Positions 1-57,022 of a DNA stretch of 64,000 nucleotides are shown here, piece after piece. The position numbers and the translations under genes were made by a program. Every line of letters begins with the position of its first letter. Position 1 is the stretch's first letter. Source of the stretch: a virus (lineage: Duplodnaviria > Caudoviricetes); IMG/VR virus record IMGVR_UViG_3300020264_000005, positions 1 through 64,000 of that record. One strand, written 5' to 3'. The notes beneath the pieces are model-generated. The model had not been told where the DNA came from. It saw only the letters and a list, made by a program, of their open reading frames with translations, and ran no database searches.

Positions 1-104
1 ACATCCGTGCTCACATTTCCGAGAGAAAAAAGAATCGGAGCAACAACCCATGTGAGAGAGAGGTGGGATCCCTCTTGAGCCTCCCCTGCTGACGAGTAGG
101 GGAT
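1..104 (+). ncRNA. Structured ncRNA, probably the 3' part of a manA-motif RNA (5' end cut by the window edge)
   Basis: Four stems are visible: CTCACAT(10-16)/ATGTGAG(50-56), TTCCGA(17-22)/TCGGAG(35-40), GAGAGG(58-63)/CCTCTT(71-76), TCCCCTGCT(82-90)-GACG-AGTAGGGGA(95-103). It lies directly 5' of a tRNA, the known context of manA RNAs in cyanophages. Family name is from recall, not a search. Confidence 0.55.
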
Positions 105-112
105 ATTCCCAT

Positions 113-186
113 TCCTCTATAGCTCAATTAGGCAGAGCGGTTGACTGTTAATCAATAGGTTTCTGGTTCGAGTCCAGATGGAGGAG
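113..186 (+). tRNA. tRNA-Asn(GTT)
   Basis: Acceptor stem TCCTCTA/TGGAGGA, D arm AGCTCAATTAGGCAGAGC, anticodon loop CTGTTAA, T arm CTGGTTCGAGTCCAG; no encoded CCA. Confidence 0.95.
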
Positions 187-188
187 TT

Positions 189-293
189 ATGTATAGAACA
201 ACTTATAAAGAACAGATTGGATATATCTACATCTGCATAAAAGAACTGATGAGGATGTACATCATGAAAGATCGGTACACACCTAGCGTATAA
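189..293 (+). CDS. Possible 34-aa hypothetical protein (MYRTTYKEQIGYIYIC...)
   Basis: Open frame ATG189-TAA293, preceded by GGAGG from the tRNA 3' end. Confidence 0.3.
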   Translation: MYRTTYKEQIGYIYICIKELMRMYIMKDRYTPSV

Positions 294-296
294 ATA
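289..296 (+). promoter_or_regulatory. T4-type late promoter TATAAATA
   Basis: Exact gp55 consensus about 40 nt upstream of the giant structural ORF. Confidence 0.8.
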
Positions 297-335
297 AATC
301 CGAGGATAAGTTTACACCGCAGGGTCAGAATAATC

Positions 336-3300
336 ATGCCATTAACACGTCTAGATAACCTTATCAGCAGTAAGACTGGTAAGTATCTTTATGTTTCTCC
401 TGATGATTTCAACGCGACAGATGCGTTATCTAATAGAGGCAACTCCCCAGTAACGCCATTTAAGAGTATTCAGAGAGCATTTCTAGAAATTGCACGATAT
501 TCTTACCTACCTGGCTCAAACAACGATAGGTTTGACCAGTTCAGCATTATGCTGATGCCTGGTATTCACTATATTGATAACCGTCCTGGTCTTGCAGACA
601 CTACTGGCATTGATCCATTCGGTTTTGATCAAGGCAGTAATGCTTGGACTGATAGTAGCATCCTCGATATTTCTAACCCTGATAACGTCCTCTACAAGTT
701 TAACAACACTGAGGGTGGTGCTATCATCCCTAGAGGTTCTTCGCTGGTAGGTTATGACCTTCGCCGTACTGTTGTTCGTCCTCTATATGTTCCTGACCCT
801 GCTGTAACGGAACGTGAGATCCCTCGCTCTGCTATCTTTAACGTAACTGGTGGTTGTTACTTCTGGCAGTTCACCATTAAGGATGGTCAGACCACTGCAG
901 AATCTCCTCTCTACAACTCCCTCGATGGTACTGGTGAGGTTTACTACGATCCTAATGACTTCACTAAGAAGGCACCACCTAACTATTCTCACCACAAACT
1001 AACTGTATTTGAATATGCAGATACTGAGGAACTAAGTCTCTTCTACAGAAAGATTGCTAAAGGTTTCTCACTATATCAACCAACCATTGATGATCCTGGC
1101 GAATTTGATTTCAGAGTCCAAGAGAACAGAATCGTTGGTCCTCTATCTGACTCCAGAGTTATTGAATCTCTGAAGTTAAACGATGCTACGACTATTCCTA
1201 GCATCCCTGCATCTACTTCTGAGATTGAAGTAACCACTAAGGTTGACCACGGATACTTTGCTGGTCAGTTTGTTGCTATTTCTAACACTGAAGTTGATAG
1301 TGTACTTGAGGGTATCTTCCCCATCAAACGCATTGATGAGAACGATCCTCGTAAGTTCACCTATGAAGTAGCAGAGGTTGTTAGTGCAATCGGTACTGGT
1401 ATTGCATCAGGTAATACTATTGATACTGGCACGACTCCTGCACTAGGTGGTAATGCACAGACCCTAGCAGAAGTTGACTCTGTTGAATCTGCATCACCAT
1501 ACGTATTCAACTGCTCCATCCGTTCTACGTGGGGTATTTGTGGTATCTGGGCAAATGGTTTGAAAGCCACTGGTTTCAAATCAATGGTTATCGCTCAGTA
1601 CACGGGTGTTTCGTTGCAGAAGGATGACAGAGCATTCATCCGTTACGACGAGTATTCTAACACTTGGAACCAAGCATCACTAACTGATGCATTCGCTACG
1701 GTTCCTTATCACACCAAGGGTGATTCTTACTGGAAGGATGACTGGAGAAACTTCCACGTTCGTGCATCAGAAGATGCATTCATCCAGAACGTTTCTATCT
1801 TCGCTGTTGGTTTCGCTGATCACTTCCTGATGGAGTCAGGTGGTGACATGTCTATCACCAACTCTAACTCTAACTTCGGTAACACATCTCTACATGCTAT
1901 TGGTTTCAAAGGTTTCGCCTTTAACCAAGATAAGGGTGGTTACATTACTGACATCATTCCACCTAAGAAGATCTCGGATGATGCTGCTAATGTCAAGAAG
2001 ACTCAGTATTATACCATTGATATTCAAGGCACCATTGCTGATGCAAACAACTACACCAAGTTGTTCCTAGGTAGTGATGACATCAAAGATCCACTGAACC
2101 GTCCTGCAGTATCAATCAACGGTTACAGATTGGGTGCTAAGTCTGGTGAGAAACTATATGTAAAACTAGATCCTGCAACTGCTGGCGGTACTGAAGAGTT
2201 CAACGTATCACTAGAACCAACTGGTTTCGTTAAGTATATTGCTGCAGCATCTATCCTTAACCCTTCAGGTTTTGCATACAACAGCACCTATGCTGATGCT
2301 GCTAACTTGATTGAAAGCAACCGTAAGATGATCCAAGAGGAAGTCTTCGGTTATATTATTGAGAAGTTCCCAAGACTTCAGGACATTTCCTATGTCAATC
2401 CTGGCAGAGATCCTAATGCAAACCGTTACAATGATGCTCGTAACCTGATCATCAGTAACAGACAGGATATTGTCAATGATACTATGACTTCTCTTAGTAT
2501 CTTCAATCCTACCTCTACAGTTACTGCTGAAGATGTAGGTGAGATGGTTGATGCAGTTGCAGAAGACCTTAGAGATGGTGGCAACTCCAATACTATCCTG
2601 CTCATTCAGTCATTCTTCAATGGCAGTGGACAACTAAGCAAGTATGCAGGTGAGCAAGAGAATGTCCTCTGGGCAATCAACAGAGCAAGAGATCTTTGTA
2701 AGCAAGCAGTATCTAACCTGCTAGCAGTTAAGGCAGATCTTTATGATCCAGATTCTAACAGTCTGATTGCTCCTTATGGTGGTCTACCTATTGGTACTAT
2801 CACCGCAGGTAAGACTGGTTCACAGGCAGAAATCGATGGTGATACCACTAATGGTGTTACTATTGACCCAGCACAGAAGATTGATCCTGCTTCTAGGTTC
2901 AGAGATACCTACAGACTGATCAATAATAACAGAGATTACATCCTTGATAATGCACTTGCAGAGATTGCAACCTATGATGAGTCTCCATTCTTCTACTTCC
3001 CTGGCGATCCACAAGAGACCAGTCAGTCAAGATTCAAGACTGCATATCGTCTAATCAGACGCAACAAAGCAGGTGCTATTGATGCTGCTATTACTGCTAT
3101 TCAAACTGCTCACCCAGCATTTGTATTCCCAAGTGGTACACCTGACAAGTGTCGTAGAGACCTAGGAGCCTTCATTGACTCACTGGGCATGGACATCTTC
3201 TTGAGTGGTAACCAGTGGACCATCACCTTCATGGAGAAGTATTTTGAAGGCAGCAATACTTGGGTTACTGGTGGTCTCCAAGGTGAAGAAACAGAAGCAA

Positions 3301-6300
3301 TCACTGGTTTCAATGCCGTAAGAGATTATCTTCAGGATGCAGTATCTAACCAACTAACTTCTGGTTATCAGGATCTCAGCGTATCACCTGGCGAAGCAGT
3401 CTATGGTGATGGCAATGGCGATCTTACTAACACAGATGCTAGTGCATGTGCTGACGTTCAGAATGCAATCGCAACTCTAACTTCTATTGTTACTCAGGTA
3501 ATTAGTGATGGCAACCCTGATACTATTAGGAATCCTAATAATCCTAATTTTGTAAACCCACAAGCACGTAGTCTCCAAGCAAATGAGAACAAGTGCCGTA
3601 GAGATATCGGTCACATTGTTGATGCAGTAATGCAAGACTTGTGGTTCGGTGGTAATGCTTACTCTGTCTCAATGGCAAGAGCATACTTCGACCGCTTCGG
3701 TAATGCAATTAGCAATGGTCTAATTGGTGAACAGTCACAAGCAATCACTGCATTCAGACGTGCTGCTGATGTTATCAACTCAGCAATCAACAACAGACTG
3801 TTATTCTGGGATCAGTCAATCACTCTTGATAAGACTGGTGATCCACCAATCGTATCTGATACTAATGCAGACGCACATCGTCTGATCATGAAGAACAAGG
3901 AGTGGTTGGCAGAAGAGGCATACGAGCGTATGCTTGCTAATCCTCTCTACAGTTCTTATGAACCACAAGAGCAGAACACCAAGCAAGATTGTCTAGACGA
4001 TGTTATCAACATCCTTGAGATGATCATGTATGACGTTAAGTTTGGTGGTAACGCTAAGACTTACGACTCTGCAGAGATCTACATTACTAACGTAATGCCA
4101 TTCTTCGGCAGTGAGAAGAAGCGTAAGGAATACACTCCAACTAATGTTACTTACGATCCAGCAACTGGTCTATCAGTCTTCACCATTCCTGGTCATGATA
4201 TGGTTGCTGGCAACTATGTCAGATTTGATGACAACAGTCTGGTCTTTACCTGTGCCATGGATAACAACCAGTCACAGAAGTCTTACCCACGTGCTGGTCA
4301 AGATCCTTTCTCTGGTAACTGGTGTCAGATTGTTGATGCAGATGAATCTAGCATCACCTGTAACGTTGGTGTATCTGGTCCTAACCTAAGCTTTGACCCA
4401 ACCAATGTAATTTACAACTCCACATCTGGAGCGATGGAAATCACCATCGGTGCAGGTCACGGACTTTCCGTTGGCGAAGGCGTGATGATCGCTAACAATT
4501 CCCTCACATTCACTTGTGATCAGGATAACAACCAGACTCAGCATACTTATCCTCGTGCTGGTCAGGATCCTTACGCTGGAAAGTCCTTTACTATTACTGC
4601 AATCAGCACTAACACGATTACTGTTAACGTTGGTGCCGCTGGCACCGCAGCAGGCGTACCACACACCTTCGTCAGTGCTCTCGCTGGTTCTGTAACTCAC
4701 TCCCCACAGTCTGCACACACCTTTATCTCTGCAACTGATAACTGCATTGGTTACGGTCTAGCATCTTCTACCTTCATTGACCCTGAGCGTGATGAAGCAA
4801 GAGAAGTATTCAATCAGGTAAGAGCACTTGTTCCTGATGTACTGAGAAACATTGCTGTTACCAACACTGGTGCTAATACTCTTGATCAGTATATCGATGG
4901 TGCTACTGTACAAGACTGGGATTCTCCTGCATGTGTAAACGTTATCTCTGCAGTACAGTCTAACATCGACACCATTATGCAGGCAATCGGCAACGATCTT
5001 GCTGGTGTTGGTAACCTCAATGGTATCGCACGTACTGTTCCTGCACAACCAGTAGATCTGATCCAGAACGGTGTTAACCAAGGATATGTTGCTGGTAACT
5101 GTTCTGATGTTGTTGCTGCTGTCAACTCACTGATTGATATCACTGTTGAGGCAGTTCTACTAGGCACCCTAGACAATCTCCCATCAGTAGACAATGGTCT
5201 CTGGGATTGTGCTAACGTCCGTAGCAGCATCGAGAACCTGTTTGACATCGCTGTTGATGCATTCTCACTCAGCAACCTCACTAACCTCCCTGTTGTTAAC
5301 AGAGGATCATTCACTAATGATGCTGAGGCATCTAAGTGCTACCGTGACGTTGCATACATCGTTGATGCTGTTGTATCTGACCTTAGACTTGGTGGTAACA
5401 TCAACTCTGTACAGGCAGGTGAAGCATACTACGTTGGTACTAGCAGCAGTCTAACTTATACTCCAACCAACGCTACTTACGATCCAGCGACTGGTCAGTT
5501 CGTCTTGACTGTTCCTAATCATAGTGTTCAGGCTGGTAGATACATCAGACTTGCTGATAATTCATTCACATTCACTTGTGGAATGGACAACAATAAGACT
5601 GAGAAGTCTTATCCACGTCCTGGCATTGATCCATATGCTGGTCAATCCATCCTAGTAACTGGTGTTACTGCAAATACTATTACATGTAACGTTGGCGTCT
5701 CTGGTCCTAACGTAGAGTATACTCCAACCGATGCTTCTTATGATCCTGCTACTGGAGATCTGGTACTAACTATTGGATCCCACTCACTGACTGTTGGTGA
5801 AGGTGTTGTCATTGACGACAATTCATTGACCTTCACTTGTGGTATGGACAATGATCAGGCACAGAAGTCATATCCACGTTCTGGTATTGATCCATTCTCT
5901 GGTCGTTCAATGCTGATCACCAGCAGAACCAGCACGACTATTACTGTCAACGCAGGTGTCTCTGGTCCTAACAAGCAGTTCACCCCAACCAATGCTCAAT
6001 ACAATCCATCAACAGGTGACATGGTTCTCACTGTTGGACAGCATGGTCTAGGTGTTGGTCGCGGCGTTGTACTTGCAGACAATTCACTCACATTCACTTG
6101 TGCTCTGGATAATAACGCAACTCAGCATAGTTATCCACGTCCTGGTACTGATCCATATGCAGGTCAGAAGTCAATCGAAATTACTGCTGTTGGTTCTACC
6201 CAACACACAGTCACCAATGCTCCATACAATGCATCAACTGGTGTTATCACACTAACTGTTGGTAACCACGGATTCAGCAATGGTGATTACATTAAGGTTG

Positions 6301-9300
6301 CTGATGGTTCACTAACTTATACCTGTGATCTAGATGGTAACCTCACCCAGAAGTCTTACCCACGTGCTAACTACGACTATCCATCTGGTCGCTGGATGGA
6401 GATCTCCAATGTAACTGCAAATACTTTTGATATCAACGTTGGACCTTCCTCTTACACTGGCACCCACACCTTCGTAAGTGCTGCTGCAAATGGCATTGAA
6501 CGTCAAGATGGTACATTTACTATCAACGTTGGTGTATCACCTGACACGTCTGCACATACCTTTGTAAGTGCAACTGCAAATGCTGTCTCTCACACCCCAC
6601 AGTCCGCACATACTTTCGTAAGTGCTGGTACTAATTGTGTTAAGCACCTACCACAGGTTGCACATACATTCGTAAGAGCTTCCACTAACGCTCTGATTGC
6701 TGGTGGTTCTCAACTACAGTACATCGACGGTGAGAAGACTGAGACCCTAGCAGCATGGGATTACGTTGGACAGATGGCAACTGCTGCCATGAGGAACTTC
6801 GACTTCCTAGCATACAACTGTACCACTACTGCTGGTAGTGCAATCGTTGATGTTGGTGACACTCGTGGTATTCTGGTTGGTATGCGTTGTGTTGAGTATG
6901 ATGACACTGACATCTCCAACCCAGCATATGTCAATGGTGTTCTACAAGCAGGTGCTCAACCTGTTTACACTACCATTGGACAGAATGTATTCGTTAAGAG
7001 AATCGTCAACAATACTCAGATTGAACTTGGTGTAGAGAACTCTAGATTTGAGTTCGGTCAGACTGTAAATGCAAATCAATCTAGCAGCACCATCGATCTA
7101 TTCTTTGTCTTTGAGAATGGTCAGTGGGCAGACACTCTACCTAAGACTGTAACTGTCGGTCCTGCAAATACTGATCCTGATGTTATCGCTGACACCCTCA
7201 CTGGTAACATCATCACTGATCCTGCTGATCCTAACTTCGGTGAGCAGATTAGAGAGTGTGCTGGTACTGCAAATGCAATCACGACGTTGATTGGTAACAT
7301 CACCACCATCATTAACTCTGGTGTTGGTTCTGTTACTAGACAAGAGCAGACTGCAGACATCTCCCTCTTCTCACAGAGATCAACAGTATTCACCATTAAT
7401 ACTTCTGGTCTAGGTGCATCTAACCCACACAACTTTGAAACTGGTACACCAGTCAGACTGGTCCCACGTCCACGTTTCGATACTGATCTTGGTAGATATG
7501 TTGATGTTGACAAGCGTCTCATCAGACTACCTGACGGATTTGAAACTAACAGAACTTACTATGTAATTGCACCAGGCAGAAAGACACAACCATTTGACTT
7601 CTCCAACACTACGTTCTTCAATGGTAGCGATCAGACTAAACTGATGCTCGCAACCTCAAGAGAGAATGCAGCTGCAGGTATCTTCATCTATGCATCTGAA
7701 TCTGAGAGCATTGATCCTAATGTAGAGATCGATATCTATCAGTTCATCCTCGACGAGAAGTACGATCTACATCGCTACAAGTGTAATCTATCCAACGCTG
7801 TTGTTGGTGGTATTGAGACTGATGTATCTAACGTCTTTGACGTTCCATTCTCTTCAGTAACTCCACAGAAAGTATTCTTCAGAGATCTTGCACCTGATGA
7901 TCTACCAACTGTTGGTCAGACCTTCGCAAGTGATCCTGAAGTTACCGTAACTGATGTTAACGATGCAAACTTCGGTAGACTGAACCCAGTCAAAGAATTC
8001 TTTGCACGTTATCAGACCTCTAAGGTCTTCACGATCCACAAGACTCACGCTGACGCAATCAACAACGCTGATCCTATTCAGTTTACTGCTGGTCAGACTG
8101 ATACGTTCCAAGTCTTCTGTAACAAGCGTAGATCACCTGTTAAGTATGACCCAACATTCAATCAGGGTGTTGCTAATCAAGGCAAGTGGTACATCGAATG
8201 TATCGACGAAGGATCCTCTGGTATTGCACAGGGAATCAAGCAAGAGAACATCTTCTGGAGATTACATCAGGACGATTACTCTGACAGACCTAAGACCACT
8301 GATACGTGGTTCACACGTCTGGAAGATAACCGTGAAGCAGATGATAGAACATACAAACTACGTTATGTCATTCCTTCCTATCTTGAGAACGCAAGAGATC
8401 CTATCAATGGATTCGTTATCAAGACAAGAACTGACGACACTCGTAAGTTAGTACCACAGAAAGTTCTCCTAAAACCAGTTGCTGGTAGTGTATTTGGTGC
8501 TCGTTTCGAGAACCCAGTACAAGCTGGTGAATACATTGGTTACACTGGACCACAGTTCACCCAGTTCGCACTGAATAGTGAGGAAGCATACGATCCTTAC
8601 AGAACTGATCAAACTGGTCAAGGTGTTGAGTATAAGTCATTCGCAAGATTTACCTCTGGTATTCAGGCAACTATCCAGTCTGGTCGTTATGTAGAGGATC
8701 CACTAGATCCTAACATCCAGTACCTAGAACTGACCCTGATTGATCATACTGTTGATGCTAAGAACTTCCCTGGCCTCAAGAATGAGCAGTTCACTACTGT
8801 TCGCATCAATCCACCACAGGGTGGTGAGTGGGTAGTCAATAAGACTGCTAGTATCACTGCTAACCAAGTCGAATGGACTGGTAATTCTTCAGGCATCGCG
8901 AATATCCATGCCTATTACGAAAATGCGGGTTCACATTACCTAATTCTGAAAAATATTCGCGGCGGAAAATTAGAGTTCTCAGAGTTTTATAACACCAGAT
9001 TTACTCAAGGCAGCACATTTGCTGATATGCTTGAGGATCAGGACATGGGTAAATCCCTACCACTCAAGACTCTTATCAAGAAAGGATATCCTGAGTATTA
9101 CTACAAGCAAAATGGTGCTAATGTTTACACCATCACGCCAGGCGACAGAATTCAGGATAGCGCAGGTGTTGAATACTATGCTGCTAGCGTCGAAGATGCT
9201 GGTATTATCGATGATACCTTCTATGTCTTCAACTACGAGACACTACAACGCAGAATCGCTGGTCAGCAAGACGGTATTTACTACCTATCCTGCCTACGCG

Positions 9301-46225: not shown

Positions 46226-49200
46226 ATGACCGTCAAGACGAAGAGAATTTCAACTCTTATTGAGACACAACTCCCAGAATTTATTACTACTGAGTATGAA
46301 CTTTTCAGTAAGTTCCTACAGAAGTATTATGAAGCTCAGGAGGTACAGGGCGGTCCTTTAGATGTAATCAGCAATCTTCAGAAGTATGCTGATATTGACT
46401 ACTATGAGAAGAATCTTCTCAAGCAAAATGATATTCTAGTATCTAATATTTCAGATACTGACACGACCATTGTCCTGCAGGACGCTACTTCATTCCCTGC
46501 ACAGAATGGTTATGTCAAAATTGATGATGAGATCATCTTTTATGACACTCGCACTGATACAACTCTAGAAGGTTGTGTAAGAGGCGTTAGTGGTAATACT
46601 TCCCTAGGAGACCTATACGAAGGTTCTACCTTTGTCAGCACCAGTGCGGCAGCACATAGCGGCGGTAAGAAGGTACATAACATTAGTAACCTCTTCCTCT
46701 ATGCATTCGTCAAGAATTTTGAGAGTCAGTATCTAGGTTCATTCCCCCAGAAGTACCTTAAGGGTGAAGTAGACAAGAGAACCCTGATCAAGAACATCCA
46801 GAAGTTCTACAAATCAAAGGGTACTACTGCTTCAATCAAGTTTATCTTCAATACTATTGTTGCCAAGGAGATTGACAACAAACCTGAAGTATTCAAACCA
46901 AGAGATTTTACATACAAGGCATCTGAGTCTGACTGGATCAACATCTATTCACTCAAGTGTAAGGTCATCTCTGGTGATCCAAAGAGTTTGATTGGTAAGG
47001 TTATCAGTCAGAGCATGCCTTTTGTTCAGGCAACTGTAGATAACGTCTTTGAAGATAGCAATGCTGACGGCGAAAGAATTTACAATATTGTACTTGCACC
47101 AGAGACTGTAACTGGTAAGTTCGATATTTCCACTAAAACAAAACTAACTGCACCTCTATCTGATGCTGCTGGTGCTGGCGCTAGAATCAATGTTGCTTCC
47201 ACCATGGGGTGGGACAAGTTAGGTTCTGTTCTTATTGGTGATGAAGTCATTGAATTCACTGACAAGAACGTATCTCAGTTTGTTATCTCTAAGAGAGGAC
47301 CAGTTCCAGTAACTTTCCTAGCAGGTAAAGAGGTATACAAACCTTCCCTAATCATTGGTGAGGGTGTTACTCTACTTACTTTGGGTCTGGTGTACAACGT
47401 TGCACCTACGATGCAAGCACCACACTCAGCTGTTGGTGACAAAGTACAAGAGTCTGTTGCTGGTTTCCAAACTGCTGACCCACGTATTGTTGATATTAAT
47501 ACGAATCAGGTACGTTGGAACCTCAATAACTTAGGTCCAGTATCTGCAACCACCAATGCTAACATTCAATCTGCACTGAGTGGTGTATCGACTAACGTCT
47601 CTGCTATTCTAGAAGACGAGCAGTATTACTACATTGCTAGTTCTTCTTATCCTTCTTACAACATTCTAGACATTCTAGAAGTTGACAAACCAGTACAGGA
47701 TCAGAAGCAACTCAGAATTATTCGTAAAGAACCAATCTCAACGACTGAGATTTATAAGACACCCAACAGAGACGTTGGTATCCTCGTAAACGGTGTTCCC
47801 ATCTTCGGTTACAAGGATCCTGAATCCATTCGTTTTGGTGTACTTGAGACTATCAAGGTTACTGACAAAGGAAGAAACTACGCCAATCCACCTTTTGTGT
47901 TGATTGATGGTCTACCTGAAAGAGCAAGAGCATTCTTGATTGGTAATGTTGTTGATCGTATCGAGGTAGCTACTACTGACATCTTCCCACAAACTCCAAC
48001 AATTGAGATCACCTCTGGTAAAGGTGGTAAAGCAACTGCTGTTGTTACTGGTGGTGAAGTCACTAGTATTGTCATTGATGATGCAGGTAAGTATTATTCA
48101 ACTCCTCCCAGAGTCGTAATTAGAGACTTGGCAGGTAAAGGACGCTTTGCTGAGTACACTACTGAAGTTAACACCGCTGGTCAGATTACTGCTATCAACA
48201 AAGTTGCTGGTGGTACACTCTATACACAGAGCAACATTCAAGTTGACATCGTTGCTGTCGGTTCAGATGCTAAAGCAACACCTCTTCTCAAAGAATGGGT
48301 GAAGAACAGGTTTGAGAAGTACAAGGGTGTCATGGATACCCAGTATGGTTTCCTATTCCGTAATTACAACATTGTATTGGACAATGGTTACGGTCAACTA
48401 GGCAATCCAAAGAAACTTAGAGTTGCACTGGGTGATAACTTAGACAGTGCTGATTCAGAACCAGCAACTAAGACTCACTCACCTATCATTGGTTTTGCTT
48501 ATGATGGCAACCCAATCTATGGTCCATTTGGTTACAATGATCCTTTAGATGCAACATCAACTCCTGTTAGAATGACATCTAGTTATTCTCTAGTTGGTGA
48601 CAGGGATCGTGGTCCCAGTATTACAGAATATCCGTTAGGTGCATTCATCGACGACTATAAGTATAGTCATAGAAGTGGTTCATTGGATGAAAACAACGGA
48701 CGATTTTGCGTTACCCCCGAATTTCCAAAGGGAACTTATGCTTATTTCCTTACTATTGATAGCAATCAAGTACCGAAATTCCCGTATGTTCTAGGAGACA
48801 AATTCTACTCTCTACCTGTAGACAGTAACTATAACTCAAACATCAGTCAAGACGATATTCCTAAGAAGTCCAAGCGACTCAATGTTGCTGGCATGCAGGG
48901 TAACGGCGAAGGTCTAATTGCAGAAATTGGTGCAGTTGGCGCTGGTATCCTTGATAGTGTCGAGATTCAAGACTCACACGACAACTTCTCTATTAACAAC
49001 AAACTATACTTTGATAACGTAGGAACCGAAGGAACCAGTGCAGAGGCATTAGTCTCATCTGTTACTGGTGAGAACGTTCAGTATCTTGAGTGTAAAGAAG
49101 ATAGAGTTGTTAAACTGACAACTATCCAAAGTGCATACCTATTTGCTGATGACACTTTAAGACAACCACAATCAGGTGCTTCTGGTAGTATTGTTGGTAC

Positions 49201-52200
49201 TGTCAAGGGAGATACTGTTATTGTTCTACGTAACGTCAATGGCACGTTCGACAATACAGGTACTTTCTCTGCAGACATCAAAACCTTTACTATCACTGTG
49301 GATCAGGATAGTAACTACACGATTGGTGCAGTTCTAAGACTGACTGATGGTGTCAATCCACCATATGCAACTGGTGAAGTTCTAGAGTCTACCAGCAAGC
49401 AGAATACTGTTAAGATCAAGGTTCTCACTGGAGAATGGGTTGTCAATGAAGATTACTTCATCCAGTCCAGCAATCTGTTCAACACGTCTGGTTCAAAAGT
49501 AGTCTCACTCGTATCAATGAGTGATGGACTAGAACCATTTGATGTAAACCAAAGTGTTGCTTTGGTTGAGACTGATGTGAATCATGGTCTTGCTATTGGT
49601 GACGAAGTAACTATTGATATCCGTCCTAACGACACAACTAAGACTAAGAACTATTATATCAGACAAAGACTGTATCAAACTGCAGTTGTTAGAGAACCAA
49701 ACAATAAGAGTAGCATTTCATACAATGGTATTGGTAGATTTACCATTCTAAATGGTGGTGCTGACTATACAGAAGGAACATACACCAATGTTCCTCTTAA
49801 GAATGGATCAGGTACAGGAGCAACAGCAAATATCACTGTATCTGCAGAAGGCATTGTATCAAATGTCCAAATCACTTCTGGTGGAACAGATTATCAAAGA
49901 GGAGACTACCTCACTGTAGAAGATGACGAACTAGCAAGATCTGGTGCTTCTCAGAGCACTGCTAGATTGACGATGTATGTCGATCACTCTGGTGTATCGT
50001 TCAGTGCTGACTCTATTAGAGTTGCAGATCCAAAAGGTTTCTCTGTAAACGACAAACTGCAAGTTGGTAGTGAGATTATGCAGATCACTGCTATCAATGG
50101 CAATGATCTATCTGTAACTAGAGCACTAGAAGGAACAAAGAGAGTAGACCACTACAATGGTGGTATTATTACACTATACAAACCAAGTTATAACTTCGAT
50201 GCTGGTTTCAAGGTTAGCAATACAACAGGTGGTGGAACCATTCTATCATATGATCGTGATACTCAAACTATCACTGTAATCTATGATTATGGTATTGACA
50301 AGATTGCTGCTGATGAACTTATCAACAGCACAACGTTCTTTGATTCTGGTGATCCAAGCAGACTAGTAACACTTGAGAGAGTATCTGATCTAGAATTTAA
50401 GTTTGAGTTCTCTGAAGATAATGAGAACTTCACTCCTAACCCAAATCTAGATTTACAGGAGTTCTACAGATATACATTTGATACATCACACCCTTCACTA
50501 CTAGGAACTAACTTTGATCTAAGTCCAAGTAAGAGTTATAACCTCCTAACCTTAGAAAAACTGAACAGTGCTGCATTGCCTGGTCAAGTTGGATCATTTA
50601 CTGAGGTTAAATTTGGTTTTGGTCCTAGATTGGAAGAAAACAACTATGACAATAAAGTAGGCACGAATTTCACATACTTTTACTACTTTGATAGGAATAA
50701 CAAGGTAAATTCTGAAGGTTCTTTCTTCAAAATTGTAAATGACCCTCTGCAGGGTACAAAGACGCTTTCTTACGTCACCCCTAATCGATTTGTATATGAT
50801 GTACCTACAGAACCACTGTGGGATGGATCAGGTCAAATTACATATACTACCAGAGGACAATTTGCTACTGGTAAAATTCATGAAATTGCCGTAACTAATT
50901 TTGGTGAGAACTACAAGAAGACTCCAAGAGTAATTGGTGTTGATCCAGCACAAGAATTCAGAGCAGAAGCAACTGTTCTCTATGATTCAGAAATTGGTGC
51001 TATTACTACAGTAAGACTTGACAACGTTGGTTCTAATTTCTCCAAACCTGCAGCTGTCATCGTAGATGGTGATGGACAAGGTGCTCTATTTGATGTAACA
51101 CAGAGAAATGGTAAGATCTTCTCTGTTACCATCAGAAGTATTGGTAAGAACTATTCTTATGCACCTAAGATTAAGATTATTGAGACAGATACTAAACTGT
51201 TCCCAATGAGTTCTTCTATTGGTGTACCACAGAGTATCAATATTATTAGAAATGGTGGTGCATACCATTTAGATAAGACTGTTGCATCTAAACTGTCTTC
51301 TCAGACTGTTGTATCAATTGAAGTATCTGATAATATCAAATTCCAGACTGGTGAGAAAGTCACACAGACTGTAAATGGTGTAGAAGTTTTAAATGCTAAG
51401 ATTTCAGAATTCAGACAAGGTTCAAACCTTGTAAAACTAAAAGATATTAATGGTATCGTTAGAGAAGGTGTAGAACTAAAAGGATTTGTATCTAAATCTA
51501 CCGCAAAGGTAAAAGTAGTATTCGTTTCCAAGTTCAACGAAGAAATTACAACCTTCTTTGATAATCTAGGTTACTATAACTCAGATAGAGGTAGACTTGG
51601 TACTGCTAATCAGAGATTGCTTGATAGTTACTTCTATCAGGACTATTCTTATGTTGTTAAGTCCAAGACTTCTATTGAAGAGTGGAGAGACCTTATTAAG
51701 TCTACCACACACCCTGCTGGTTTCCAACTATTCGGTCAGGTTGATATTGAGACTGATGCTCCAGTCGAAATGCCTAAGGAGCAGAACAAGTCTGACTCGT
51801 TCAGTATCATTCAACTATGGGATCCTGCGAAGAACAAGATTACAGTTGAAAGCACCAAGCAAGTAACAACTCAGTCAATCCAATCTGTTAGTGATTACAA
51901 ACTGAGAACTGGTTCTGGTTCTGTTGCAACATCCGAATTCAACTTCAACGAAAGTCGTGCGTTTGAATTCAGGATCTACAACATGACGCCTGGTTTCTAT
52001 GATGCAACTATCAATGCAGGAAATCCATGGTGGATGAAGAATCCATTCGATGGTTATTTTGATAACGATGGAAGATTGAAGGGTTCCGTTCAGTTCCAGA
52101 TCAGGGACATGTTTGATAATCCATTCAATCCAGTAAATGCAGAGAGTTGCTTTGTTACTCTCGATGGTATTATTCAAGAACCACTCAGAGCATATACTAT

Positions 52201-55200
52201 CAGTGGCGATAAACTTGTCTTTGCTCAACCACCTCTGGGTGATAATGAGAAACTAACTGGTCAAAATGTCAATGCTACGAGTTCTTACAATGGTGTTAAG
52301 TTCATTGGTAGAACCTTCTTCTTTAAGGATTCTCAGTACAATAACAGATACCTAAAAAAAGCGAGAAATATTTTCCAGCGTGGGGGTCTATGGATAGACG
52401 CTGCAAATCAAATCGAACAAAATAAAGAGTTTATTATTCAAGAATCTGTAGGGTATGGTAAGGAGACTTATCCATCCTTGGATTGGAGTACAAAACTCGA
52501 TGATTACAGTTTAGACATCGGATATGCACTCGATGCATATGCACATGACATCAGATTTGGTGGAAATACCAAGACTGTTGATTATGCAAAGATTTTCCAG
52601 AAGTCAAAATATATTGCTGACTATAAAACTGAGTCCATCAACATCTTTGAGTATGCTAGAAAACTAGCAAACCTTGCTGTTAGAAATTGGGACCTGTCTC
52701 TACAGTCAGTTCAATATATTACTGGTTCTAAAGAGATGACTGTCGAAGATTCTTCTCGATTGGTTGTCGGCATGCATGTCAGCTCTGGTCGTGGTTTCGC
52801 AATGGGAACCAAGATTGTATCGATTGACTCTTCGACAAAAATCACTCTTTCTGCACCTGCACTTCAAAACTCTGGTGTAGGTGCTGGCGGTGCTCCAGAT
52901 GGAACCACTAATCTAACTGGCACAACCAACGGAACTTTAAACCTACCAACAAACACTGGTGTTGTACCACTAGGAGATCAATTCTCTGTACAACCAGGCG
53001 ATAGTTTGATTGTACCACTATCTTTCTCTGGTATTGAAAGTGCTACCTTCTACATGAGTGCAATCAACACTGGTACGTTTGTTGATGCTTCTAACCTCAT
53101 CTTTGGTAATAAGCAATACATTCAAGAAGAGACTGTTGGTTGGGCAAAAGCAACGTACCCTAGTGTACCATGGAATGAGAATGAAGGCAAGTGCGTTAGA
53201 GACCTTGGATTCCTCATCGACAGAATTGTTTATCACCTCCGTTATGGTGGTAACGAAAAAGTAATTGAGTTTGCACAACTATATTGGACAAAGGCATCTT
53301 ACCCTAACCAAGAACTATTGACTGGTATTGGTGACGAGAAAGATGAAACTCTAGCAGCATTTAACTATGCTAAGGATCTCATGGTCCAAGCAATGAGAAA
53401 TGTTCTTGGCGCTGGCACTTATACATCAGTTTCTCCATTCATTGATCCTGATGTTGCTGCTGACAGTGAGTTCCCATATTGTGTCGAAGTTGAGACTACA
53501 CTCAACACTTATATTGATATTGTAGAAGACATCTTCAACAAAGGTGTTGGTGTTGTTGAAGTTACCAGAGAAAATCAGAATAAGGCAGGTAACTGGACTC
53601 CAATCACCACTTATTCCAATTACAATATTCTCCCTGATAGTCAACTACCATTCTACGAGTGTAACACTGTTGTATCTGCTATCGACAATCTCCATAGCAA
53701 TCTCGAAGATACTATCAATGGTAGTGATGTTGATAAGACAATCCCCGACTTCATTGATGGTGAGAACAGAGAGTTCGATCTACTCTGGGATGATGGATCA
53801 CCAGTTATTACCGAAGAAGATGAGAGATTCTTTGTAACTAGTAATGCTGTACTACAGCAGACTAAGTTCAATGCTGATCATCCTGGCGGTGATTCATATC
53901 ACATCGATAGAACAGTTGTACCAAACAGAATTGTATTCGATGTTGCACCTATCTGGGATCAAGATGCTGGTGCTAAGACTCTAGGTGAACCAACTGCAGT
54001 TGAGAAAGTCGCTATTCTTGGTGTTGGTAACTACAAGAGACTATCTATTGATAGCAATCTAGTTAACAACCAAAGAAGTGGTCCATTCATCATCTTGGAT
54101 CTAGAAGATAACACTGTACAGAATATTGAGTCCAGAGATAACCTCTTGGTCTTTGTTGATGGTGTTCTACAGAAGTATGGTACATCATATACTATCTCAG
54201 GTCCAAACATTTCATTTGAATTCCCAATTACGGAACAAATGAAGGTTGATATGAGATATCTCTATGGTAGAGATGTCGGACAGATCCTCAATCTTTATAA
54301 TTACAACCCAGATCTGTATTATGCACAGGCAGTTGCATCATTTAGATGCACCAGCAATGTTGCTGAGTTTGTAAAAGGCGCATGGCAAGATATCTACACT
54401 GGTTATCCACTTCAGGTCTATCAAACCAGACCTAATAATACCAAGATGTGGATTGGTAATGTTAACAATCTTCTCGTTGATGACTTGGGTGGTGGAGAAG
54501 CAGACATCACATTTGAAGTTAATGGTAACAAATCAGAATTGATGGATGCACCTGTTACTTTCTGTATTGCTAGAAAGTATGCATATGAGATCACACTAGA
54601 CCTTGATTATGACAACTCATCTCTCGTTTATGAAAAGGATGAGTATGGTGGTTTGACTCTAAGAGGTAATGATCAAGCATGGAGAGGGACTATCATCAGA
54701 AAGTCCTACAAGAATCCATTTATTAACCTTTCTAACAACTCTAGAATCAAAGTAGATGGTGAAGATGGTTTCAGAAGAATCAAAGAACTTCCTTCTGTAC
54801 TTAATTCTTCTGAAGAGAGAATTGGTGAGCAGGTTTCCAACTCCTACTATGGTTACGTTAATGTAGAAGCATATAATGGTATAACAAGAGGCGAAGGTCT
54901 TGCAGTTGTTGCTAAAATTGAGAATGGTTCTGTTGTATCTCTAGAATGGAACCAGCGTAGTTATGATCCTATCACCCAACCAACAGCATATCAATATTAT
55001 ACACCACCTATTCTAAACTTTGTACCAAAGAATGGTCAAGGTGGCGGTGCAAGAGGTAAAGTTGTTGTCAGTAAGGGTCAAGTTCTCAGTGTAGAACTGA
55101 CTGATGGTGGATCTGGTTACACTGAAGCACCTGACATTATTGTTGCTAGACAGTATCAGATTCAGAAAGAGAATGACATTGGTGTATCTCTAATTGATCT

Positions 55201-57022
55201 AAGAGTTCAGCAGGAAGTAAAAGTACAGGGTCTTATCTCTAGTTCTACCATTGACTTGCTTGCTAATCAGGTTTCTGGTATCAATACTCTGTCTTCTATT
55301 CTATTCAGAAGTCCAGTTGACGAAGTTAAGGATATCACTTGCCACATCTGGCCTGCTGATCAGCAAGTCAGTGAGGATCTAACTGGAGGAATTGTTGCTC
55401 CTCTACTTAAGATTGCTGAAGCAGCACAAGAGAATGTACCTGTTATCAACACATTCCACAACTTCACTGAAATCAATGGATACATTGATATGGGTGAGAT
55501 TGTTGACATCAGAACTGGTTCTAGTATCTACTACTTGGATGTTGATAGAGTTATCACATCTACTGTACAGTCTGAGATTCCTAATAATGCAATCAGCAAC
55601 ATCAACCACTATCAGAATGCTGCATTCCTCAACGTTCCTCTGGACATTGGCGATACCATTGCATACATTCCAGATACTGAGAAGTTCACTTCAAACGGAT
55701 TCCTCCTCATTGGTGATGAAATTGTTAGATATCTCCGCAAGGGTTCTGATCGTTTCTTCAGTCTCCAGAGAGCACAGCAAGGAACTACCGAGAAGAACTG
55801 GAATGCTGGTACGTATCTAAGACAGATTCCTGATCCATCTGTATCTGTTGCATACGGTGGTATTGCTAAGGTTGAGTCTCAAGCAGTATCCGTTGAGATG
55901 GGTGGTATCGCAAGCGGTTTGGGCGATGGTGAACTCGGACAAGATAGAGTAAGACAGTCACAAGTTCTTACTCCATCTGTAGCAAAACAGCGTGTTGAGC
56001 AACAAATCGAAGTTTCCGTAAGCAGAGACATCGCAGTTGACTCAATTTCCGCGCTTGAGACTCAGGTTAAGTACAAACTTGAGACATTTGCGGTTAATGT
56101 TGTTCCAACTACACTACAGTATAACGCTACTGTCGCTACACAGCAAGTTCAGATACAATCCCTCAACACAATCCAAACTGTTACTACTAAGGTAGAAGCA
56201 GACATTCAGATCAGTGTTGATGTTGACTCACTCAAGAGTCTAGAATTCATCAGAAAGGTAACTGTTCCTTCGGAATACACTGCTACCACTGAAGAAATCA
56301 AGCATAATGCAACTGTTGTTAGTGGCGAACTACAGAAGATTATTACCGAGATCTCTGTATCACGTGAGGCACTAGAGTTACTGATTGTTCCACCTCCTTC
56401 TGGAGCAATCGATGGTTATGAAGAATCAGTATTCTTGACTGATCCTGTTGAGACAAGACTAAATGGATTCGTAGATCTTGATCCTAACACATATCCAGTC
56501 ATCAAACGTGATGGTACTATCATCTACCCACTCAACTCTGTTGCTGGTGTAGGAACTGGATACATCGGTAACTATGTTAAGACTAATGCTGGTCCTACTA
56601 TCGGATCTTGGAACTATGTTGCATTTGACGATGGTACAGCAAATGTCTCTGGATTTACTCTGGAAGACTTGAATAGATTATATCCTGCTCTGACTATCAA
56701 TGACTTTGTTGAAAGAGCAGACTCAAGCTTCACAAAAGCAGGTGATTACTTCAATCTTTCAGTACCATCCATTCAGAATCCACTAGCACTTTCTTCCTCC
56801 ACACAACCAATTGGTACTGCTGGAGTAAATGCGCTAGATATTACAGTCAATAGTACCGTAAACTTCCCTGACGCTGGATACCTGTTCCACGCTGATGGAA
56901 CGGACTCAGGAGTGATTGAGTACACTGGCAAGACTGCAACTACGTTTACTGGTTGTGTTCAATACAGGGGAAGCACTCAGGTTGGCAATGGTGCGGAAAT
57001 CGTGCCGTTCACAATTGACTAA
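46226..57022 (+). CDS. gp7: Baseplate wedge initiator gp7-like giant protein (3598 aa)
   Basis: Lies between gp6 and gp8; N-terminal FL.KYYE and FYKSKGT; DSYFYQDYSYVVKS..HPAG; YHYH-like domain; two nested helical repeats. Confidence 0.82.
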   Translation: MTVKTKRISTLIETQLPEFITTEYELFSKFLQKYYEAQEVQGGPLDVISNLQKYADIDYYEKNLLKQNDILVSNISDTDTTIVLQDATSFPAQNGYVKIDDEIIFYDTRTDTTLEGCVRGVSGNTSLGDLYEGSTFVSTSAAAHSGGKKVHNISNLFLYAFVKNFESQYLGSFPQKYLKGEVDKRTLIKNIQKFYKSKGTTASIKFIFNTIVAKEIDNKPEVFKPRDFTYKASESDWINIYSLKCKVISGDPKSLIGKVISQSMPFVQATVDNVFEDSNADGERIYNIVLAPETVTGKFDISTKTKLTAPLSDAAGAGARINVASTMGWDKLGSVLIGDEVIEFTDKNVSQFVISKRGPVPVTFLAGKEVYKPSLIIGEGVTLLTLGLVYNVAPTMQAPHSAVGDKVQESVAGFQTADPRIVDINTNQVRWNLNNLGPVSATTNANIQSALSGVSTNVSAILEDEQYYYIASSSYPSYNILDILEVDKPVQDQKQLRIIRKEPISTTEIYKTPNRDVGILVNGVPIFGYKDPESIRFGVLETIKVTDKGRNYANPPFVLIDGLPERARAFLIGNVVDRIEVATTDIFPQTPTIEITSGKGGKATAVVTGGEVTSIVIDDAGKYYSTPPRVVIRDLAGKGRFAEYTTEVNTAGQITAINKVAGGTLYTQSNIQVDIVAVGSDAKATPLLKEWVKNRFEKYKGVMDTQYGFLFRNYNIVLDNGYGQLGNPKKLRVALGDNLDSADSEPATKTHSPIIGFAYDGNPIYGPFGYNDPLDATSTPVRMTSSYSLVGDRDRGPSITEYPLGAFIDDYKYSHRSGSLDENNGRFCVTPEFPKGTYAYFLTIDSNQVPKFPYVLGDKFYSLPVDSNYNSNISQDDIPKKSKRLNVAGMQGNGEGLIAEIGAVGAGILDSVEIQDSHDNFSINNKLYFDNVGTEGTSAEALVSSVTGENVQYLECKEDRVVKLTTIQSAYLFADDTLRQPQSGASGSIVGTVKGDTVIVLRNVNGTFDNTGTFSADIKTFTITVDQDSNYTIGAVLRLTDGVNPPYATGEVLESTSKQNTVKIKVLTGEWVVNEDYFIQSSNLFNTSGSKVVSLVSMSDGLEPFDVNQSVALVETDVNHGLAIGDEVTIDIRPNDTTKTKNYYIRQRLYQTAVVREPNNKSSISYNGIGRFTILNGGADYTEGTYTNVPLKNGSGTGATANITVSAEGIVSNVQITSGGTDYQRGDYLTVEDDELARSGASQSTARLTMYVDHSGVSFSADSIRVADPKGFSVNDKLQVGSEIMQITAINGNDLSVTRALEGTKRVDHYNGGIITLYKPSYNFDAGFKVSNTTGGGTILSYDRDTQTITVIYDYGIDKIAADELINSTTFFDSGDPSRLVTLERVSDLEFKFEFSEDNENFTPNPNLDLQEFYRYTFDTSHPSLLGTNFDLSPSKSYNLLTLEKLNSAALPGQVGSFTEVKFGFGPRLEENNYDNKVGTNFTYFYYFDRNNKVNSEGSFFKIVNDPLQGTKTLSYVTPNRFVYDVPTEPLWDGSGQITYTTRGQFATGKIHEIAVTNFGENYKKTPRVIGVDPAQEFRAEATVLYDSEIGAITTVRLDNVGSNFSKPAAVIVDGDGQGALFDVTQRNGKIFSVTIRSIGKNYSYAPKIKIIETDTKLFPMSSSIGVPQSINIIRNGGAYHLDKTVASKLSSQTVVSIEVSDNIKFQTGEKVTQTVNGVEVLNAKISEFRQGSNLVKLKDINGIVREGVELKGFVSKSTAKVKVVFVSKFNEEITTFFDNLGYYNSDRGRLGTANQRLLDSYFYQDYSYVVKSKTSIEEWRDLIKSTTHPAGFQLFGQVDIETDAPVEMPKEQNKSDSFSIIQLWDPAKNKITVESTKQVTTQSIQSVSDYKLRTGSGSVATSEFNFNESRAFEFRIYNMTPGFYDATINAGNPWWMKNPFDGYFDNDGRLKGSVQFQIRDMFDNPFNPVNAESCFVTLDGIIQEPLRAYTISGDKLVFAQPPLGDNEKLTGQNVNATSSYNGVKFIGRTFFFKDSQYNNRYLKKARNIFQRGGLWIDAANQIEQNKEFIIQESVGYGKETYPSLDWSTKLDDYSLDIGYALDAYAHDIRFGGNTKTVDYAKIFQKSKYIADYKTESINIFEYARKLANLAVRNWDLSLQSVQYITGSKEMTVEDSSRLVVGMHVSSGRGFAMGTKIVSIDSSTKITLSAPALQNSGVGAGGAPDGTTNLTGTTNGTLNLPTNTGVVPLGDQFSVQPGDSLIVPLSFSGIESATFYMSAINTGTFVDASNLIFGNKQYIQEETVGWAKATYPSVPWNENEGKCVRDLGFLIDRIVYHLRYGGNEKVIEFAQLYWTKASYPNQELLTGIGDEKDETLAAFNYAKDLMVQAMRNVLGAGTYTSVSPFIDPDVAADSEFPYCVEVETTLNTYIDIVEDIFNKGVGVVEVTRENQNKAGNWTPITTYSNYNILPDSQLPFYECNTVVSAIDNLHSNLEDTINGSDVDKTIPDFIDGENREFDLLWDDGSPVITEEDERFFVTSNAVLQQTKFNADHPGGDSYHIDRTVVPNRIVFDVAPIWDQDAGAKTLGEPTAVEKVAILGVGNYKRLSIDSNLVNNQRSGPFIILDLEDNTVQNIESRDNLLVFVDGVLQKYGTSYTISGPNISFEFPITEQMKVDMRYLYGRDVGQILNLYNYNPDLYYAQAVASFRCTSNVAEFVKGAWQDIYTGYPLQVYQTRPNNTKMWIGNVNNLLVDDLGGGEADITFEVNGNKSELMDAPVTFCIARKYAYEITLDLDYDNSSLVYEKDEYGGLTLRGNDQAWRGTIIRKSYKNPFINLSNNSRIKVDGEDGFRRIKELPSVLNSSEERIGEQVSNSYYGYVNVEAYNGITRGEGLAVVAKIENGSVVSLEWNQRSYDPITQPTAYQYYTPPILNFVPKNGQGGGARGKVVVSKGQVLSVELTDGGSGYTEAPDIIVARQYQIQKENDIGVSLIDLRVQQEVKVQGLISSSTIDLLANQVSGINTLSSILFRSPVDEVKDITCHIWPADQQVSEDLTGGIVAPLLKIAEAAQENVPVINTFHNFTEINGYIDMGEIVDIRTGSSIYYLDVDRVITSTVQSEIPNNAISNINHYQNAAFLNVPLDIGDTIAYIPDTEKFTSNGFLLIGDEIVRYLRKGSDRFFSLQRAQQGTTEKNWNAGTYLRQIPDPSVSVAYGGIAKVESQAVSVEMGGIASGLGDGELGQDRVRQSQVLTPSVAKQRVEQQIEVSVSRDIAVDSISALETQVKYKLETFAVNVVPTTLQYNATVATQQVQIQSLNTIQTVTTKVEADIQISVDVDSLKSLEFIRKVTVPSEYTATTEEIKHNATVVSGELQKIITEISVSREALELLIVPPPSGAIDGYEESVFLTDPVETRLNGFVDLDPNTYPVIKRDGTIIYPLNSVAGVGTGYIGNYVKTNAGPTIGSWNYVAFDDGTANVSGFTLEDLNRLYPALTINDFVERADSSFTKAGDYFNLSVPSIQNPLALSSSTQPIGTAGVNALDITVNSTVNFPDAGYLFHADGTDSGVIEYTGKTATTFTGCVQYRGSTQVGNGAEIVPFTID

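Follow-up and report, generated by a model that had tools for sequence, protein, structure and literature searches.

How one chain can carry five copies of each of four helical segments, in an order that does not fit tandem repetition, is the question raised by a stretch of 64,000 nucleotides (positions 1 to 64,000 of the IMG/VR record IMGVR_UViG_3300020264_000005; hereafter the window) from a T4-like Synechococcus cyanomyovirus, for which S-CAM4 and ACG-2014e/i/j are the closest records, with 71-74% of nucleotides identical. The segments lie in P0001, a giant open reading frame (ORF) whose features are collected in Table 1. An earlier note, made from the letters of the window, proposed that P0001 holds helical domains nested inside one another, that these form a branched virion appendage and that cysteines in two of the segments might close the domains by disulfides. 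The analysis reported here leads us to assign a probability of roughly 0.8 to the reading that residues 645-2332 form one module of five nested, globin-like domains homologous to phycobiliproteins (PBPs), each seated in its parent at a loop on the surface. Prediction and comparison support the fold, the closure of domains 2 to 5, the unity of domain 1 and the gain and loss of whole domains.

Central to this reading is the order of the four segments, designated A, B, C and D. Scans with regular expressions and hidden Markov models (HMMs) found five copies of each within ~6 nucleotides (nt) of where they had been placed before: segment A at nt 2295, 2430, 2904, 3039 and 3870; segment D at nt 3447, 4932, 5100, 5208 and 7257; segment B at residues 735 (where the cysteine is missing), 938, 1086, 1218 and 1667; and segment C at about residues 772, 983, 1131, 1483 and 2131. 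Four segment HMMs, each built from the five P0001 copies of that segment, recover exactly five A, five B, five C and five D (each at E 1e-8 to 1e-18) in the order AABCAABCDBCABCDDDBCD, precisely the string that had been claimed. A stack parser resolves it into five domains with a maximum depth of 4 and the topology already proposed, in which domain 2 occupies the A-B loop of domain 1, domain 3 the C-D loop of domain 2, domain 4 the A-B loop of domain 3 and domain 5 the C-D loop of domain 3. The 20 segments can be ordered in 1.17e10 ways, of which 969 (8e-8) parse as nesting, plain tandem being one of these 969. All three of the claimed beta stretches, between B5 and C5, between B1 and C1 and between C1 and D1, are present as well.

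It could be argued that this order is the debris of partial segmental duplications, the unpaired A and D segments being linkers or small units and the parse a coincidence or an imposition of the model. AABC does occur twice in a row in P0001, and in relatives the A hairpins follow one another with a regular 43-residue period, much like a tandem repeat. Against this stands the 8e-8 chance that the P0001 string parses, and predicted structures bear on the matter directly. Residues 645-1700 were modelled with AlphaFold2 (adding 644 to a model residue gives the protein residue). Over 20 entire chains of the globin fold superpose on the region of domain 2 in this model, at model ~48..1005, with 109-129 residues aligned and Z up to 11.4 (for example 3pmc_B, Z 11.4, 122 of 132 residues aligned; 3zta_A, Z 11.4; 4uiq_A, Z 10.7, 129 aligned). 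That range comprises A2-B2-C2 (105 residues) and the D2 helix (24 residues), so domain 2 is predicted to be closed across an insert of 830 residues. Domain 3 is aligned over model 209..969 (115 residues) and over 438..969 (B3, C3 and D3), and domain 5 over model 530..913 as one helical domain that spans its beta insert. The structural test proposed in the earlier note is thus answered by the prediction for domains 2, 3, 4 and 5, which close over exactly the bracketed ranges. Searches limited to the top hits of Foldseek were filled by the contiguous domain, and the nested domains showed only in a wide search. Moreover, the model of the orthologous nest of two domains in L029 (391 residues) reaches a predicted local distance difference test score (pLDDT) of 79 and a predicted template-modelling score (pTM) of 0.82, and the outer domain is matched by globins over the ranges 4..378 and 5..380. 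When compared with the profile of contiguous domains, the outer B-C-D piece matches with 99.6% probability (E 3e-24) over the B to D columns only, and therefore has no A segment of its own. AlphaFold2 may over-pack helices, a point in favour of the duplication debris; the exact coincidence of the globin chains with the bracketed ranges counts against it.

Comparison of orthologues provides a second line of evidence, since indels of whole domains at the predicted loops, which the earlier note had proposed to look for, were found in L046/L047, L025, L023 and L029. Domain 1 runs without interruption in L046/L047, in L046 at 9737-10504: its A1, 55% identical to that of the window, is followed 8 residues later by B1 (64%), then by C1..D1, and then by a downstream region collinear with that of the window. 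It follows that this loop holds 984 residues in the window, namely domains 2-5, and that a beta array of 422 residues separates B1 from C1 there. The same array is missing in L003, L025 and L046, in which C1 directly follows B1, and L025 is without domain 4 and without both beta arrays. The C5-D5 loop is longer by ~860 residues in L001; L023 reaches depth 6 with seven domains, three nested paralogues of domain 4 adding two further levels; and in L029 the module of domain 3 around domain 4 stands alone. Throughout, orthology traced segment by segment preserves the last-in-first-out order.

The domain family extends well beyond these orthologues. The domain profile matches 1266 clusters at 50% identity among 1.84 billion representatives, of which the best 150 representative proteins, giant and metagenomic, were surveyed; six clusters that were looked up carry no functional name. 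Across the 150 proteins, the bigrams that nesting forbids make up 6% of those observed vs 40% in shuffles, and a strict nest parse succeeds for 18 of the 150 vs 0 of 30,000 shuffles. In P0003 (2927 residues, metagenomic), ten consecutive A hairpins at 43-residue spacing are followed by the matching B-C-D units, and the string parses into 12 balanced domains at depth 10. Depths taken from end-tolerant parses of strings without D are unreliable, because the broad-family segment HMMs are less sensitive to lone D helices than HMMs specific to one family and missed D2 and D3 of P0001. Segment counts are balanced and parsable in four orthologue architectures and in unrelated family members of up to 12 domains. 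Together with the uninterrupted domain 1 of L046/L047, this leaves the duplication debris hardly credible. The proposal of recursive insertion of whole domains is borne out by the predicted closure of domains 2-5 and by the indels among homologues. Further extreme nests occur in P0013, P0046 and P0049, while in P0016 the domain is repeated as ABCD in simple tandem arrays.

What the nested units are had not been recognised. They are helical domains, as had been proposed; they are not generic four-helix bundles, and the models identify them as distant homologues of PBPs with a six-helix, globin-like fold in which segment A corresponds to helices A/B, segment B to E/F', segment C to G and segment D to H. 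In the AlphaFold2 model, domain 4 superposes on phycoerythrin beta with VIA Z 16.8 and a root-mean-square deviation (rmsd) of 2.4 over 144 residues, and on the phycoerythrin and phycocyanin beta chains generally with an rmsd of 2.4-3.0 over 144-161 residues; all 50 of the best 50 entries listed are PBPs. The inner domain of the L029 model gives Z 16.0, again with PBPs as all 50 top entries. Foldseek matched phycoerythrin beta at probability 1.00 (TMt 0.75) and returned no hit at E <= 0.001 for the 1056-residue AlphaFold2 model. In sequence, a profile of 14 contiguous domains searched against the PDB sequences finds PBPs as all of the best 60 listed (best E 5.6e-4), and the KCxRD of the domain profile aligns with the conserved KCxRD of phycocyanin alpha (CpcA), whose cysteine we take to be the bilin-attachment Cys84 of the standard numbering. 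As regards the X-Y arm of PBPs, most alignments begin at chain residue 25-33, and those that begin at residue 3-8 use a helix of the A hairpin of the parent domain. In both AlphaFold2 models the second helix of the parent hairpin sits at the X/Y place relative to the inserted domain (residues 221-241 of model m5c150a944172 and residues 24-39 of model meb13209c443c). A parent-child pair of domains may thereby mimic an alpha/beta protomer.

The X/Y place is that of the intersubunit arm of PBPs, and this has to be weighed as a sign that the globin folds are completed between the chains of a trimeric fibre by domain swapping, A hairpins of one chain joining B-C-D parts of the next, or that the pairing is crossed. 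Fibres are usually trimeric, PBPs oligomerise, and our models are of monomers only. On the other side, linkers of ~8-25 residues join the innermost A to its B and each D helix to the next, and they fit intrachain last-in-first-out pairing, which such short linkers make the only easy geometry. The contiguous orthologue, moreover, pairs an A1-type with a B1-type segment, that is, the first A with the last B, and the monomer models close confidently. We therefore consider swapped or crossed pairing quite improbable.

If the module is a nest of PBP-like domains, its architecture can be pictured as follows. Whole domains would have been inserted either between PBP helices B and E, in what is here called the A-B loop, or in the G-H loop (the C-D loop), with arrays of beta-barrel repeats placed in further loops. 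The chain would run out through the A hairpins and back through the B-C-D parts, and the domains would close last-in-first-out, leaving both ends of the module in domain 1. Since domain 1 contains both the N and the C end of the nest, the nest would form a side branch on a fibre, in which whole domains could be gained or lost without altering the connectivity of the trunk. A branched virion appendage had already been suggested, and a branch off the chain is reasonable on these grounds; the virion part of that suggestion is a matter of annotation. In a PHROGs search, PHROG 529, a tail-fibre family, is matched by the N-terminal 612 residues of P0001, and PHROG 4527 ('short tail fiber') by residues 2303-4506; relatives in GenBank are labelled 'short tail fiber' or 'tail protein'. 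It is from these labels, and from the position of the chain ends, that we infer the virion location and the branch geometry respectively; the function proposed below is likewise an interpretation.

The cysteines of segments B and D offer a way into that function. Over 629 distinct contiguous domains, the positions of the CxRD motif in segment B are kept at 96% (Cys), 92% (Arg) and 98% (Asp), and the best-conserved feature of the family is, judged from this alignment, the PBP chromophore triad Cys-x-Arg-Asp. A cysteine in segment D occurs in 19% of these domains, and 391 of the 629 have a single cysteine. A B-D disulfide is thus not a conserved role, and the suggestion that disulfides close the domains was rejected: the B cysteine aligns to the bilin-binding Cys84, and in PBP beta subunits tens of angstroms separate Cys84 from Cys155. 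An alignment that places model residue 413 on chain residue 177 puts the D cysteine (model residue 394) at about beta-158, and its position would correspond to the second bilin site of PBP beta subunits (beta-Cys153/158). In P0001 itself, the B cysteine is present in four of the five domains and the full CxRD in three. The preferred functional reading is that of bilin pockets, because the triad is the best-conserved feature; that bilin is attached covalently in the CxRD pockets, which would then be more than inert scaffold, is nonetheless a tentative proposal, to which we give less than an even chance.

Alternatively, the domains may be a pigment-free scaffold or beads that bind a receptor, their cysteines being structural, as disulfides, or vestigial. 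P0001 has a cysteine in all five D helices and in four of the five B helices, the medium around virions is oxidising, and domain 2 has no cysteine in its motif. To our knowledge, pigment has not been reported in cyanophage particles. Against these points stand the rarity of the D cysteine across the family, the retention of the arginine and aspartate that contact the bilin in PBPs, and the presence of a bilin lyase, CpeT, in complete relatives; we see the chances of a pigment-free module as about even.

In an S-CAM4-like genome, a gap of ~275 nt with a tRNA-like sequence separates the end of cpeT from the orthologous giant gene downstream. The lyase gene also precedes the orthologous giant gene in L008, L011, L013 and L014, lies further upstream in L012 and L025, and in two other genomes is present at a distance from the giant gene. 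Neither cpeT nor the bilin reductase family is found in the record of the window, which is uninformative in this respect, being a 95-kb fragment that is 49% complete and starts 335 nt upstream of the ORF. T-type lyases act on the beta-Cys153 position (PMC10452541). Returning to the bilin pockets, the CxRD sites and the second, beta-155-like cysteines of P0001 would be chromophorylated during infection by phage CpeT, a T-type lyase, together with host lyases, from bilin made by the phage or by the host. The virion might then carry covalently bound bilins and the nested branch would serve as a light-absorbing or light-sensing tail organ, an idea that we hold to be possible though on balance doubtful. 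Were it true, phage cpeT, pebS, pcyA and ho1 would have a target in the virion. Bilin-bearing branches could also lie behind the dependence of adsorption on light that has been reported for P-HM1, P-HM2 and other cyanomyoviruses. For some cyanomyoviruses light is required for adsorption, in which tail fibres are possibly involved (bioRxiv 10.1101/167650).

Several points weigh against the nest of PBP-like domains as set out above. All of the structural support comes from AlphaFold2 predictions, and closure was read from the first and last aligned residues together with the aligned counts. The model of residues 645-1700 has a pLDDT of 68 and a pTM of 0.46, and a pTM at that level does not define how the five domains lie relative to one another. 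The closure of domain 1 in the window is argued from the uninterrupted orthologue. As regards homology, PF00502 is matched below its gathering threshold in 8 of the 14 contiguous domains, at a best E of 0.0013, and membership by that threshold was found neither for whole P0001, nor for its single domains, nor for the 14 contiguous domains. Pfam gave no hit with whole P0001 or with single domains, a single-sequence phmmer search of the PDB sequences with P0001 gave no match, and a profile of the outer B-C-D pieces alone found no PBP among the PDB sequences. The motif is degenerate in two places, domain 2 being without both the Cys and the Arg and domain 5 having Asp in place of Arg. Finally, the placement of P0001 in the virion derives entirely from database annotations (PHROG names and GenBank relatives).

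Set beside known systems, the phage domains share with the alpha and beta subunits of PBPs (PF00502) the same globin-like arrangement of helices (Z 15-17, rmsd ~2.2-3.0 over 140-160 residues), a K-C-x-R-D at the place of the bilin Cys84 and, by our reckoning, a second cysteine at the start of the last helix near beta-Cys153/158. They differ in being 10-20% identical to PBPs, below the Pfam cut-off, and apparently without X/Y helices of their own; unlike PBPs, which are free subunits of 17-20 kDa, they sit in a phage protein of 4506 residues, nested and interrupted by beta inserts, and their chromophore is putative. The PB domain of ApcE (LCM) likewise embeds the PBP fold within a large multidomain chain (4xxi_A, Z 12.7-13.3; full-length ApcE, Z 11-12). 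In the ApcE match the core spans ~198 chain residues for ~130 aligned, a span that presumably reflects the PB-loop between helices B and E, the loop also used by the A-B insertions of P0001. However, ApcE is a cellular protein with one PBP domain and an unstructured loop insert, whereas P0001 is viral and appears to have whole PBP-fold domains inserted recursively. As with inserted domains generally, the parent fold is completed by the segments that flank an autonomously folding insert. The discontinuous domains known to us are mostly one level deep and combine unrelated folds; here, in contrast, one fold would be inserted into itself to a depth of 4 in P0001, 6 in L023 and 10 in P0003. Haem-less sensor globins (the RsbR N-domain and pXO2-61) and globin-coupled sensors are the best structural matches of domain 2 (Z 10.7-11.4), but they are cytoplasmic signalling domains without sequence relation to it. 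In its motif region (P0001 residues 731-759, window 2526-2612) domain 2 reads A-E-D, and the haem-less sensor globins, at Z ~11, match it better than PBPs do.

A search of the literature for PBP-like domains in virion proteins of cyanophages, and for nested insertion in cyanophage fibres, found no description of either, and the nested, self-inserted PBP-fold architecture seems undescribed. It would provide a clear example from nature of a fold inserted deeply and recursively into itself, with a bearing on the folding and evolution of discontinuous domains and on how phages lengthen or branch their fibres without disturbing the trunk. It would also mean that the structural proteins of cyanophages include a very large family built from homologues of host light-harvesting proteins. 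Further, two old puzzles, the presence of genes for CpeT and bilin synthesis in cyanomyoviruses and the light-only adsorption of some of these viruses, could be tested at the bench.

Table 1. Predicted map of the nested module in P0001 (positions in the window unless a contig is named), with the giant ORF and a related cpeT gene
Feature	Position	Strand	Details
Giant ORF P0001	336..13856	+	4506 aa; holds the nest at residues 645-2332
Domain 1, A1	2268..2402	+	residues 645-689; helix pair corresponding to A/B of PBPs
Domain 2, A2-B2-C2	2403..2735	+	residues 690-800; B2 without Cys and Arg of CxRD
Domain 3, A3	2877..3011	+	residues 848-892
Domain 4	3012..3515	+	residues 893-1060; sole uninterrupted ABCD unit; KCRRD; Cys at start of helix D
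Domain 3, B3-C3	3561..3830	+	residues 1076-1165; KCRRD
Domain 5, A5-B5	3849..4109	+	residues 1172-1258; DCLDD
Beta-repeat insert, B5-C5 loop	4110..4769	+	residues 1259-1478; strands in AlphaFold2, pLDDT 80-90
Domain 5, C5-D5	4770..5009	+	residues 1479-1558
Domain 3, closing helix D3	5082..5180	+	residues 1583-1615
Domain 2, closing helix D2	5190..5285	+	residues 1619-1650
Domain 1, B1	5313..5435	+	residues 1660-1700; KCYRD
Beta-repeat array, B1-C1 loop	5436..6704	+	residues 1701-2123
Domain 1, C1	6705..6815	+	residues 2124-2160
Insert, C1-D1 loop	6816..7232	+	residues 2161-2299; kept in L003, L025, L046
Domain 1, closing helix D1	7233..7331	+	residues 2300-2332
cpeT	L005:3234-3782 (S-CAM4-like G001:17523-18026)		183 aa; PF06206, E 1.4e-41

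The beta inserts of the module (window 4110-4769 and 5436-6704) are built from a repeat unit of ~90 residues with the pattern TYxPTxxxYDPxTG...FTCxxDNN...YPR. The unit at window 4383-4706 (P0001 residues 1350-1457) resembles the beta-barrel insertion domain of the phi92 endosialidase (4hiz_A, Z 7.1, rmsd 1.9, 22% identity), and further likenesses are to the FCCH barrel of UBA1 and to a tail protein of phage N4. The beta repeat of P0001 may be a glycan-binding module.

Outside P0001, a tRNA-Asn (GTT) lies at window 112-187, just 5' of the giant ORF. A second giant ORF of the window (46226..57022, 3598 residues, gp7-like) gives segment-HMM matches at residues 2057-2498 (window 52394-53719) in the order A B A B C D, and thus has the domain family in common with P0001.

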